From assembly GCA_965215195.1 (NCBI GenBank), contig CBDCDC010000002.1:2144001-2208000 (forward strand): 64,000 nt of DNA, in the 5' to 3' direction. Below are positions 27,689 to 45,252 of the stretch, piece after piece (position 1 is the first letter of the stretch; the number at the start of each line of letters is the position of its first letter). The position numbers and the translations under genes are program-made. The notes under the pieces are model-generated. The model was not told where the DNA came from and ran no database searches. It saw only the letters and a program-made list of their open reading frames with translations. This DNA is from Candidatus Latescibacterota bacterium (GTDB lineage Bacteria; Latescibacterota; UBA2968; UBA8231).

Positions 27689-29026
27689 TCACTCCGCATC
27701 GACTAGTTGCCGTGCCAGTGATCCCTCGCGCGTCAGGGCATACACCAAGAGATTCACCCCCAAATCATACACCAACGGCTCTTCGGCACTAGCGAAAGAC
27801 GGGCTGTTCATTGCGTTCTCCGCCAAAGACCAATCCAGCAACTCCTTACCTTTTCCCCCAAAAAAATCGGCGTAGCCCTTCATCGAGTACACCCCGACCA
27901 ACTGCTCCCCAACTACGATGCCCTCCAAATAGTCCGGGGTGCGCGGCGGGTATTCTCCAACGGTAAAGTGCATATCGCGCATCCCGCGCGGCAGGCTATT
28001 TACATCGTAGAAGCAATGATAGAGCGGATGGGTTAGCCCCAAGCGGGTAAACTGCCAGTCCTTCCATTCTTGATAACCCACCGCTTGGAAGCTGGCGCGA
28101 ATGAGGGAACGCACCGCCGGAATGTCTAATTCATCGTCGCTGTATTTGGGTCGCAAAAAGCGCACAATCTCGGCAAACAGGAAGCCGCCGCTGGTCAAAT
28201 ACCCCCCTAAATTGGCTGCCTCGCTGTCCGTAAACTCAAAGGGGGTAGCGAAGGTCATGAGGACGAAGGGGACTTGCAAAAGCTGGGGATCGTCGAGCCG
28301 GACCGCGTCGCGCACTTCGACGTGAACCTGCGTCTTGGCGACCATCTTATCGGCCAACCCGTGCAGCATCCGCCGTTCTATCACTTGGCGCGGCATCTCA
28401 TAATAGAAGCGCCCTTGTGAGGAGTTGGTCTGTTCGGACTCAGCCCGTTCAATAGAAGGGCTATAAACACCGGACATATAGAGGAAGCCCTTGAGCTTGC
28501 GCCGGTCTTGGGGATCGACCACCACCATCGCCCGGTGCCGACCCGTGTCCATCGCCTGCACATCCAGCAACTCCAAGCCCAAGTCAATCTCATCGGCCCC
28601 TTGCCGCGTCCCTTCCAACGCTCCAGCCCGCAGTTGCGGACCAATGTGCCGCGCCGGGAAATCCGGCACCGGCAGCACCAGCCGATTCGGCAGCGATGCC
28701 GACGGCAGCCGAAGCGCCGATGTTTTGAACACCGGCAGGGGACGCGACGCCGACGGTGCCGGCCGCATGGCCACGACCGGGGCGGCTTGCAGGGCGGCGC
28801 GGCGCACCAACGGGCGCTCGCGGGGCCGTTGCCGCCGGCTGAGGGTGCGCGGCAGCGGCCGCTTCTTGGTAAACTTCACCATGATCGGCGGTTGCACGGG
28901 AAAGTGCGTGACCCGCTCATGGCGTGGGAGTCCGAAGATCACCAGCAGATGCAAAGCCAGCGACAACGCCAAGCAGCTTTGCAGCTTTCTATTGCTTCGG
29001 AACGGGACTTTCCACGGCCGTTTCAT
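27689..29026 (-). CDS. DUF4159-domain protein (copy 4, in the complete operon)
   Basis: 445 aa; translationally coupled to GT2 (ATGA overlap). Confidence 0.8.
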   Translation of the reverse strand: MKRPWKVPFRSNRKLQSCLALSLALHLLVIFGLPRHERVTHFPVQPPIMVKFTKKRPLPRTLSRRQRPRERPLVRRAALQAAPVVAMRPAPSASRPLPVFKTSALRLPSASLPNRLVLPVPDFPARHIGPQLRAGALEGTRQGADEIDLGLELLDVQAMDTGRHRAMVVVDPQDRRKLKGFLYMSGVYSPSIERAESEQTNSSQGRFYYEMPRQVIERRMLHGLADKMVAKTQVHVEVRDAVRLDDPQLLQVPFVLMTFATPFEFTDSEAANLGGYLTSGGFLFAEIVRFLRPKYSDDELDIPAVRSLIRASFQAVGYQEWKDWQFTRLGLTHPLYHCFYDVNSLPRGMRDMHFTVGEYPPRTPDYLEGIVVGEQLVGVYSMKGYADFFGGKGKELLDWSLAENAMNSPSFASAEEPLVYDLGVNLLVYALTREGSLARQLVDAE

Positions 29027-30102
29027 CGGCTCCCGTCCTTTCGCAAAGGATGGAGATCGAGCATTAACGTACGCTCCGCCATTTCGCCGCTCGATATGGT
29101 CTGATGCGTTTCGTGAAACGCCATCAGGCTAGGGAGGCGCATCTCCTCTGGAATTAGGCGATCCGGCCATAGAGCAGCGAGCCAAAATTCGATCAGGCAT
29201 AGCTTGGGATCCTCGTTCTTCTCCACCATGTGGGCTATAGATCTATGCCGTTTTTGCGATTCTGCGAACGCATTTTGGGGGCTGAAAAAGTCGTGGTGAT
29301 GATACAGGTGATAGCTCTGCGCCTTGGCTGCAAAGCGCATGTTGCAGCCATTCCGCATGAGGCGATAGGCCAAATCCCATCCCTCAGAGTGGGGCATCTC
29401 TTCGTCAAACCCACCGACTTCCTCAAGGGCGACGCGCGGGGCCGAAGCATTGTGTGGATAAAAACTGATCCAACCGATCGGCGAATCGGGCACGTTGTCA
29501 AAGAGTACTTGTACTTGGTCTTGCATTAATTTTATCTCCGGGAACGGATATATCCCTTCTCGGGCTAATGGGGTGATCGCAGCGAAATCGGACTGTATCA
29601 TCGCCTCGGTCACCCGAAATTTTTCTGGGTACATACGTATAATATGAGCAACCGATGCCGGAGCGTCCTCCCAAGGAAGGCCACTATGCGGGTCTTGGAC
29701 ATATTCCAAGCGAGGTAAGCAATAGTGGAATCCGCTCGTTACGCCGTTGTAGCGCTGAAATAGGTGCCAATGTTGGGCTAACCAATCGGGACCCGGTAGC
29801 GCGTCGCCATCTAAAAAGGCGACTACCTCTCCCCGCGCTTCCGCGATACCGATATTCCGCGCTCGACAGCGTCCTACATTGGTACGCAAGGGAATGACTT
29901 TTATGGGCATGTGCTCATACTCACGCAGAAAATCCCCTGTTCCGTCCGTGCTGCCATCGTCCACCACGATAACCTCAAACTGGCCTTCGGGGAGTGTTTG
30001 AACGGCCAAGCCGCTTAAAACAAGCCGCAACCGATCGCGCTGATTGTGTGCGGCAATGACGACAGAAATATCCATTTCGCTAGCTCCCTTATATACATTC
30101 AA
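29023..30102 (-). CDS. Glycosyltransferase family 2 (copy 1)
   Basis: DDGSTDGT, FLDGD, GGFDE motifs; paralog of 17575-18651. Confidence 0.9.
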   Translation of the reverse strand: MNVYKGASEMDISVVIAAHNQRDRLRLVLSGLAVQTLPEGQFEVIVVDDGSTDGTGDFLREYEHMPIKVIPLRTNVGRCRARNIGIAEARGEVVAFLDGDALPGPDWLAQHWHLFQRYNGVTSGFHYCLPRLEYVQDPHSGLPWEDAPASVAHIIRMYPEKFRVTEAMIQSDFAAITPLAREGIYPFPEIKLMQDQVQVLFDNVPDSPIGWISFYPHNASAPRVALEEVGGFDEEMPHSEGWDLAYRLMRNGCNMRFAAKAQSYHLYHHHDFFSPQNAFAESQKRHRSIAHMVEKNEDPKLCLIEFWLAALWPDRLIPEEMRLPSLMAFHETHQTISSGEMAERTLMLDLHPLRKDGSR

Positions 30103-45000: not shown

Positions 45001-45252
45001 GCCCAACGTGCCGAACAGCAGCCGCCCGTCGGCTTCCTCGGCAATGGCCATGACCGTCAGATTCGGCAGGCCATCTTCGAGGCCAAAGCGATCGAATCGC
45101 GCACTGTCGAACCGGCTGACGCCGCCGTCGGCCGTGGCGATCCAGAGAAAGCCTTGGCGGTCTTGGTAGAGGTCTTCGACGTGCATCCCGCCCAGCCCGT
45201 CAAAGACGGTGTACTGGGTGCTTAACACATGCTCAAAGGATAGGGCGCTCAT
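42088..45252 (-). CDS. Sigma54-dependent activator with N-terminal two-component-regulator propeller and Y_Y_Y sensor domains
   Basis: Repeats D..G.LW(I/L)GT..G; Y_Y_Y (YRHRL...WS...[12 protein letters not shown]); [37 protein letters not shown]-terminal HTH. Confidence 0.9.

Follow-up and report, generated by a model that had tools for sequence, protein, structure and literature searches.

The window, a 64,000-nucleotide stretch of a Candidatus Latescibacterota genome, carries at positions 27689-45252 an operon that combines cysteine-rich precursor peptides with a prepilin-type A24 peptidase and a set of redox proteins. All listed genes lie on the minus strand in the order first described, and scans of the window for open reading frames (ORFs), Pfam families and motifs have confirmed one co-oriented operon running from a sigma54 activator, palindromes and a sigma54 site to a precursor gene, a hairpin, an FG-GAP/FlgD gene, a Cys-rich FlgD fusion, a CxxC protein gene, the A24 gene, two genes of thioredoxin fold, a TPR gene, a GT-B/transglutaminase fusion, a GT2 and DUF4159. 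Some details of the initial annotation need correction. Only 2 of the 12 junctions overlap with ATG starts, so that stop/start overlaps exist and "several" does not hold; both thioredoxin-fold genes are present, and the second is split by an IS630 element that had been overlooked. The end at 27689 is arbitrary, as the operon is part of a longer, co-oriented array of duplicated FG-GAP, DUF4159, GT2 and precursor genes that extends to position 396. The host genome is 95% complete and consists of two contigs, and the nearest named records are Ca. Latescibacterota assemblies of 76-88% identity.

The precursor at 41289-41570 (ORF, alignment) has 93 amino acids (aa) and comprises a Flp-like leader (F7...G13), a basic residue at +5, a hydrophobic segment, an A-x-A site at 42-44 and a 49-aa core with 10 Cys. 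A variant at 37927-38748 has the same leader and a 14-Cys region fused to a FlgD_ig/type IX secretion system (T9SS)-type C-terminal domain. In an alignment of 26 members the order is F-x-x-[SN]-[ES]-S-G, then seven residues that are for the most part polar, with Arg/Lys at +5, then G-L at +7/+8 and a Trp at +12, the hydrophobic segment, small-x-small and a variable core. The small-x-small site follows the hydrophobic segment in most precursors; an automatic caller of signal-peptidase sites gave no usable result for 16 of 55 rows, and no count was taken from it. Among 47 distinct free cores the Cys number is even in 41 and equal to eight in 29, and 36 end in C-x-C. No Pfam or NCBIfam family was matched by the 93-aa precursor at E 10, and the 26 members reached no family cut-off worth naming (best E 0.008 in Pfam and 0.097 in NCBIfam). 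Flp_Fap did not match any of the 26, nor did the HxsA-family models at E 10. An Atlas search with the precursor returned only two Poribacteria clusters, both below 0.9 and to be read as a lead only. Most free precursors have the gene of a secreted protein directly behind them, often as repeated pairs; this is an FG-GAP protein in the present genus and belongs to other families elsewhere. In other genera (L042-L045, L047, L050-L052 and L056) a secreted family of about 310 aa without a Pfam match replaces FG-GAP behind the precursors in tandem copies. The identities of core and downstream FG-GAP protein correlate (22 pairs, Mantel rho 0.56), which was rejected as evidence of binding because adjacent genes are co-inherited and two operon subtypes drive the correlation.

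Class III leaders end in Gly or Ala and are cleaved on the cytoplasmic side, according to the available part of PMC10191384. A leader of this type, ending in Gly/Ala before a hydrophobic stretch, is present here, with a modest profile score and an alignment anchored on the Gly. When set against 23 Flp prepilins, the leader is in register at -7, -3, -1, +7 and +8. The Glu at +5 of 22 of the 23 Flp prepilins is found in only 3 of 46 leaders of the present type, and 35 of the 46 have Arg/Lys there. The hhalign score of leader versus Flp was 20.7 (probability 66%), compared with a maximum of 19.1 and a mean of 11.5 for 60 shuffles and with 9.0 for a Sec-signal control. If the cut fell after the first Gly, the remaining n-region (short and basic), h-region and A-x-A would together read as a signal peptide. 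The peptidase could also cut elsewhere, at the Gly/Ala of +7, or late, merely clearing a signal remnant, and would then be no gate for maturation. Of 46 Latescibacterota leaders, 39 have Gly or Ala at +7, and of 25 others 15 have Ala there; basic residues precede this position, as is standard for class III geometry. What the phyla have in common, and what lines up with the Flp cut site, is however F...E-x-G, and the fusion paralogue at 7528-8334 has kept this motif and lost the +7 Gly. Cleavage after the first Gly is preferred here, and a cut at +7 or a late cut is considered quite improbable.

The peptidase itself (36119-37276) is a long, EppA-like A24 GxGD aspartic peptidase with PF01478 over cut-off. 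Its D33 and G92-D93-x-K95 are invariant in 19 sequences. The best structural match of its model is FlaK 3s0x (Z 11.7, root mean square deviation 3.9, 157 aligned; next row Z 6.7), and Foldseek with the same model returned nothing under E 0.001. A relative of the peptidase carries the archaeal Arc_PepC domain and weakly matches EppA, which the available part of PMC4390842 presents as a substrate-dedicated peptidase. The A24 profile retrieved 959 clusters at E 1e-10 among 1.84 billion representatives, a count in which gene context is not included. The host genome has only two full A24 genes, both in operons of this type; the second (C2:2362317) lies in an operon of like kind with three precursor/FG-GAP pairs, and at a third locus most of the A24 gene is gone. 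Searches of the host genome for a pilus ATPase, platform, secretin and N-methyl pilin gave 0 matches, with controls matched in 13, 13, 6 and 8 of 14 genomes. The earlier remark that no pilus ATPase, platform or secretin gene lies in the window therefore holds for the whole genome, and extends to N-methyl pilins. Since these genes are missing, the A24 peptidase would have no ordinary pilin substrate in this host.

Pilus-like fates of the product have also been considered. After the A24 peptidase has trimmed the leader, the Cys-rich head might remain anchored in the membrane or assemble into a surface structure, as do the class III binding proteins of archaea. In favor of this, prepilin peptidases take off the leader alone and the hydrophobic helix stays (PMC10191384, available part), and the A24 is of the archaeal long type. 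Against such retention stand the small-x-small site behind the hydrophobic segment of most precursors, the absence of Glu+5, the absence of an assembly ATPase or platform in the genome and the T9SS-type tails of the fusions, which imply release into the periplasm. A product that is not released is judged to be distinctly unlikely, and release of the core is favored.

The redox part of the operon begins at 37290-37880 with a membrane-anchored RnfG/NqrC-like protein that has an N-terminal anchor, an invariant C105-x-x-C108 and a D-G-x-[ST]-G-A-T flavinylation motif, the cysteines and the motif being present in 13 of 13 sequences. Its model matches RnfG (7zc6_G, E 0.003, probability 1.00) and NqrC, and its first Atlas cluster (0.90) is 93% FMN_bind. 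Motif, fold and Atlas evidence have in this way borne out the proposed flavin mononucleotide (FMN)-binding CxxC protein; Pfam has not, as no match was obtained at E 0.01 and PF04205 was not hit. ApbE flavinylates such [S/T]GA[S/T] motifs (PMC8238504, available part), and an ApbE gene is present in the host genome; in two loci ApbE is adjacent. A metagenome scan with the FMN alignment gave 51 matches, of which three are clear relatives on short contigs (L156-L158), one is weak and the rest are generic FMN_bind. Thioredoxin fold A (35549-36100) is membrane-anchored and of the C-x-A-C type. Thioredoxin fold B is of the CPYC type and is divided into a 5' part (35228-35552) and a 3' part (33802-34006); its motifs are mostly CPYC, with CPHC and CGYC variants, and we take these to recall the DsbA, DsbC and DsbG oxidases and isomerases. 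A family search of the host genome found neither DsbB nor VKOR, and DsbD is present. Because the host exports many 8-Cys peptides without DsbB or VKOR, another electron sink would be needed, for which the flavoprotein is the obvious candidate.

The same proteins might work in the reducing direction, with DsbD feeding a flavin/thioredoxin set that maintains free thiols in the cores, to serve in metal binding or redox cycling. The even Cys count of 41 of the 47 cores, with variable spacing, does not fit this direction, nor do the mostly CPYC motifs of thioredoxin B with their CPHC/CGYC variants, presumably of oxidase or isomerase likeness, and no DsbD is annotated beside A24 among the neighbours scanned. 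Points in its favor are the DsbD of the genome, the ResA/MauD models as best matches of the thioredoxins and the C-x-C end of 36 of the 47 cores, since small secreted C-x-C proteins are found in flavinylation clusters (PMC8238504, available part). Overall, free-thiol products are rather unlikely, and disulfide formation is the preferred role of the set.

Distribution in the phylum has been studied with 168 genomes. The A24 profile matched 32 of them (31 were matched with a single protein query), and the precursor profile matched 39, including all 32 with A24. Stretches of up to 20 kb around A24 from 28 of the 30 other A24 genomes gave 40 loci, 21 from this genus and 19 from other genera. Thioredoxins occur in 38 of the 40 (21/21 in this genus and 17/19 in other genera), precursors in 37 (20/21 and 17/19) and FMN-CxxC in 26 (17/21 and 9/19). 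Homologous operons therefore do carry small Cys-rich ORFs with the leader as a rule. Next to A24, the remaining genes are largely confined to the genus, with the GT-B/transglutaminase and GT2 genes each near A24 in 14/21 and 0/19 loci, TPR in 13/21 and 0/19, DUF4159 in 15/21 and 1/19, and FG-GAP in 17/21 and 1/19. Of the co-occurrence first proposed for A24, FMN_bind, redoxin, GT-transglutaminase, GT2 and DUF4159, the A24 and redox part is retained, and the GT-transglutaminase, GT2 and DUF4159 part is not found in the 19 loci of other genera except for the single DUF4159 locus. The core, judged from these neighborhoods, is smaller than first proposed and consists of A24, thioredoxins and a Cys-rich precursor, usually with FMN-CxxC.

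Relatives in other phyla have been examined in a genome-collection scan, in which the best 80 of 226 A24 relatives gave 79 loci that form the basis of all cross-phylum counts; Hxs markers were taken from annotated loci of the same scan. Outside Latescibacterota there are 49 loci, of which 35 contain HxsB-, HxsC- or HxsD-like genes, 8 from Poribacteria have GT4 fusions instead of Hxs genes and 6 have neither. A thioredoxin match was not found in any of the 49. All 27 full-length Latescibacterota loci have thioredoxins, and HxsB, HxsC and HxsD are found in 0 of 27. On these gene contents the nearest relatives are His-Xaa-Ser-type (HXS) radical S-adenosylmethionine (SAM) clusters, which the initial annotation did not mention. 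The available part of PMC13128918 describes HXS as four antiphage genes, HxsA-D, and its main text, to the extent available, does not contain "peptidase" or "prepilin". The likeness to HXS (HxsA/B/C/D, TIGR03976-03979; HxsA3/A4, NF038309 and NF038313) lies in the leader, shared by small ORFs of the relatives, and in an exported, leader-processed product. The present system differs in having no HxsB/C/D and no His-x-Ser repeats, in its Cys-rich cores, and in thioredoxins and a flavoprotein that take the place of radical-SAM enzymes.

The leader appears to follow the peptidase across these phyla. A leader profile built only from Latescibacterota placed 22 motif-bearing N-termini first among the 3,935 ORFs of the 49 other loci, and the best score among 2,622 control ORFs was 6.1 bits. 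Four of the leader ORFs outside Latescibacterota match HxsA3 below cut-off. In a quick A24 tree the 27 Latescibacterota peptidases form one clade (Shimodaira-Hasegawa-like approximate likelihood ratio test, SH-aLRT, 100) inside a clade with Poribacteria and Anaerolineales (99). The principal argument that A24 would read the leader is that A24 is the sole gene, and the leader the sole precursor element, common to all branches. In Poribacteria loci L106, L115, L116, L118 and L121 the same A24 is accompanied by GT4 proteins, a transglutaminase-like protein, ABC/TolC genes and leader ORFs whose hydrophobic cores are short and poor in Cys; these loci would represent a third, glycosyl-type branch. 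The N-terminus of the Poribacteria GT4 proteins is presumably RRE-like. Intermediate loci have been seen in Poribacteria (L122, L128) and Anaerolineales (L108), which combine A24 and HxsB/HxsD-like genes with Cys-rich or Cys/His-rich precursors, each followed by the gene of a TolB-like propeller or a solute-binding protein. At L123, L137 and L151 a long A24 gene lies between Hxs-type radical-SAM genes and pilin-like genes, possibly a state of shared use.

An uncultured, pilus-less member of the Latescibacterota appears, from its genes, to use a pilus-type membrane protease together with its own flavin/thioredoxin set to mature variable Cys-rich secreted mini-proteins. The best explanation of the whole, with a probability of roughly 0.6, is a pilus-independent line resembling those of peptides made by the ribosome and modified post-translationally (RiPPs), in which A24 trims the leader, disulfides arise through a flavin/thioredoxin relay, and polymorphic mini-proteins are set free by signal peptidase I; we infer all of this chemistry. 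As part of the same explanation, the system would be the radical-SAM-free disulfide branch of a wider family defined by A24 and a Flp-like leader. The activator would bind the palindrome array and drive the sigma54 promoter, and the hairpin behind the precursor would favor precursor over enzyme transcripts. The hydrophobic segment would bring the precursor into Sec, the leader staying in the cytoplasm and the core lying outside. A24 would then cut after the Gly of F-x-x-[SN]-[ES]-S-G, as co-occurrence and the Flp register suggest; with Glu+5 replaced by Arg/Lys the product would not be a pilin, and the remainder would read as an ordinary signal peptide. Thioredoxins A and B would create and reshuffle 3-5 disulfides, handing the electrons on to the ApbE-flavinylated CxxC protein in place of the absent DsbB/VKOR. 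Signal peptidase I would cut at A-x-A and release a core of 40-65 residues. The fusion forms and FG-GAP proteins would use the T9SS-type tail for surface export, and in this genus the TPR, GT-B/transglutaminase and GT2 cassette may optionally decorate the precursors. Leaders are constant and cores divergent, even within one genome, which fits products whose most likely role is that of variable ligands or antagonists. The tailed forms could plausibly be exported to the surface, since SprA-like and PorV-like genes are present in the host genome; the SprA search control matched in 0 of 14 genomes and is uninformative.

Several observations weigh against this explanation. The Flp match is modest and both alignments are anchored on the Gly, and the Gly/Ala at +7 is geometrically an equally good cut site. 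The leader scores obtained across phyla (7-11 bits) are not separated from the genome-wide noise, which reaches 10.7 bits among 115,895 frames, so the cross-phylum leader evidence is one of enrichment and not of individual scores. The A24 tree is midpoint-rooted without an outgroup, and four rows shorter than 250 aa were left out of it. The agreement of precursor and A24 in 32 of 32 genomes is in part circular, since ORFs next to A24 served to build the precursor profile; 7 genomes match that profile without A24, 4 of them strongly, and in 2 of the 40 A24 loci the stretch taken contains no precursor and no thioredoxin. The FMN-CxxC gene is present in 25 of the 32 A24 genomes and missing from 7, so the flavin relay would not be obligatory. 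ResA and MauD are the best NCBIfam matches of the thioredoxins, and ResA is reducing. A T2SSE-family ATPase is over cut-off in 4 of the 32 A24 genomes, with 10 candidates scored per genome.

With these points included, the dedicated, pilus-independent maturation line for Cys-rich secreted peptides with a class III-like leader that was first proposed remains supported at the level of sequence, and the system is real and conserved, and apparently undescribed. The gene combination had not been recognised at first, and no description of it has been found in the literature searched, supplements and most subscription papers being outside the scope of that search; the available part of PMC12993501 contains none of the terms "peptidase", "pili" and "FG-GAP". 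If the explanation is true, prepilin peptidases would act outside filaments, as leader peptidases of ribosomal peptides, and a pilin signal would be reused as a peptide leader on which radical-SAM, glycosyl and disulfide chemistries are swapped. It would also offer a candidate route of disulfide formation in a bacterium where neither DsbB nor VKOR is detectable, and natural scaffolds of 6-12 Cys that an uncultured phylum holds as a genetically encoded library. A more far-reaching interpretation is tentative and probably goes too far. It would see in these peptides a new class of disulfide-rich mini-proteins with a leader recruited from a Flp prepilin, in the prepilin peptidase a gate that makes a working signal peptide, and in the flavinylated CxxC protein a disulfide-generating oxidase independent of DsbB/VKOR. 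Each core and the secreted protein encoded behind it would make up a ligand-receptor or effector-immunity unit, and the leader/peptidase chassis would accept cassettes of glycosyltransferase or radical-SAM type as interchangeable tailoring modules.

Comparison with known systems suggests that this one is not a glycocin, a Tad/type IV pilus or a member of HXS. Like Flp/Tad (TadV) and EppA/FlaK, it has a GxGD peptidase with both Asp, and its leader is in register with F-x-x-[DE]-E-x-G and the G-L at +7/+8. It differs in the absence of Glu+5/Tyr+6, the extra A-x-A site, the Cys-rich core and the lack of TadA, TadB/C and secretin in the genome, so that the locus does not map onto a Tad or type IV pilus locus with canonical pilins. 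Glycocins (sublancin, glycocin F and thermoglycocin) share with it a Cys-rich precursor, a pair of thioredoxin-like proteins and, in this genus, a nearby GT2. In known glycocins it is a C39/PCAT that takes off the leader, in most cases at a double-Gly motif (PMC12457901, available part). The initial glycocin analogy does not hold, as the present operon has no C39/PCAT, its leaders are not of the double-Gly type and its GT2 is accessory. ApbE-flavinylated modules resemble it in the [S/T]GA[S/T] motif, the RnfG-like fold, thioredoxin partners, small secreted C-x-C proteins and an ApbE gene that is sometimes adjacent. The clusters described in the available part of PMC8238504 are of the type DsbD-DUF3570-thioredoxin-DUF4266, whereas DUF3570, DUF4266 and DsbD are not found among the neighbours scanned here, the FMN domain itself carries the invariant CxxC, and the cluster has A24 and pilin-like leaders. 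PADLOC gave only generic TPR and AAA+ matches for 11 proteins of the window.

The accessory cassette comprises a cytoplasmic TPR protein (32575-33780; Pfam, hydropathy), a cytoplasmic GT-B/transglutaminase-like fusion (30089-32563; Pfam) and a cytoplasmic GT2 (29023-30075; Pfam). The transglutaminase-like half has Cys673, His720 and, at the third position, Glu736, predicted as a triad and invariant in 12 of 12 sequences, the Asp of the classical Cys-His-Asp being replaced by Glu. In the GT-B half of the window copy the N-terminal His is missing, as is the D of the DQ motif, both seen in 10 of 12 aligned relatives. No glycocin S-glycosyltransferase model was among the 23 NCBIfam matches of the GT2. 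Of the 168 phylum genomes 33 have the fusion, including 13 that lack this A24; among the 32 A24 genomes there are 12 in which it was not found. In the host genome its other copies have as neighbors either ABC permeases or a C39-like peptidase together with a small ORF for an exported product. The hybrid of glycocin and pilin first envisaged, an obligatory line in which the precursors are glycosylated and cross-linked, would be consistent with the conserved gene order in this genus and the invariant triad. A glycosyl link is also favored by different glycosyltransferases (GT4) that lie close to A24 in Poribacteria and in 4 loci from other genera, and 2 of the Poribacteria loci have transglutaminase-like genes. 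The absence of the cassette from all 19 loci of other genera, its occurrence without A24, its other neighbors, the altered GT-B motifs and the cytoplasmic location of the enzymes speak against an obligatory role, which is highly unlikely. Because the block is missing from those 19 loci and the fusion is found in 13 genomes without A24, the glycosyl/transglutaminase block is better placed as a separate cassette than in the core. In the host genome at C2:4361378-4367504, a GT-B/transglutaminase gene lies with a GT2-TPR fusion, a peptidase that we take from its motif to be C39-like, and a small ORF for an exported product that has a Gly-Gly site; here the same cassette belongs to a different peptide system.

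The secreted FG-GAP repeat protein (38862-41045; Pfam, NCBIfam) carries a FlgD_ig/T9SS-type C-terminal domain, and the membrane-anchored DUF4159 protein is encoded at 27689-29026 (Pfam). In the host genome the FlgD_ig/T9SS-type tail has been found on 91 ORFs, the FG-GAP body in 32 copies clustered in a few regions and DUF4159 in 20 copies.

Regulation has been assigned from several elements upstream of the precursor. The sigma54 activator (42088-45252; Pfam, hydropathy) combines a beta-propeller (Reg_prop), Y_Y_Y and AAA+ (Sigma54_activat), and hydropathy predicts no membrane segment in it. It is found near A24 in 13 of 21 loci of this genus and 1 of 19 of other genera. Five 16-nt imperfect palindromes with a spacing of 19 nt (41854-41945) form a candidate enhancer, and arrays of the same palindrome are present in 6 loci from other genomes of the genus. 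A sigma54 -24/-12 promoter match (41716-41730, minus strand; motif pattern) lies 160 nt ahead of the precursor start, with 0.011 such matches expected by chance per 450 nt. A long hairpin followed by a T run at about 41103-41258 on the minus strand is a likely partial terminator downstream of the precursor; the terminator scanner missed it and reported instead a terminator-like hairpin upstream of the promoter (41753-41779, minus strand). The strict sigma54 pattern was found at 4 of 15 starts tested in the host genome and in 7 of 69 rows elsewhere, so that sigma54 control would be supported for this genus only.

Copies of parts of the operon occur within and beyond the window. The precursor profile matched 12 places in the host genome, comprising free forms and fusions to the FlgD_ig/T9SS-type tail. 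A partial second copy at 21260-21886 (minus strand; ORF, motif scans) has an enhancer of three palindromes, a sigma54 site and a precursor with an identical leader but a different 8-Cys core, and two further fusions of leader, Cys-rich region and FlgD_ig are encoded at 6742-8334 on the minus strand. Positions 16229-21900 as a whole form a partial operon duplicate with the three palindromes, sigma54 site, precursor, FG-GAP, GT2 and DUF4159, in which the middle genes are missing and a remnant of the transglutaminase tail is left at 18638-18817. Just upstream of the duplicated enhancer is a transposase-like ORF on the plus strand (22033-22935), which is presumably IS5-like.

The IS630-family element that interrupts thioredoxin B lies on the plus strand at about 34007-35227 (DDE_3 Pfam match, genome copies), and five further copies in the host genome are 99.8-100% identical. 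Contigs joining across the site without IS630 are present in 3 of 4 runs of one study, so that intact thioredoxin B alleles appear to co-occur with interrupted ones. In a distant genome thioredoxin B is likewise split, by a Mutator family transposase (L040, 7517-9469). Public runs also contain contig joints that skip parts of the thioredoxin A, A24 and FMN genes (window positions 35687-36279 and 36031-37855), which may be deletion variants or paralogue artefacts.

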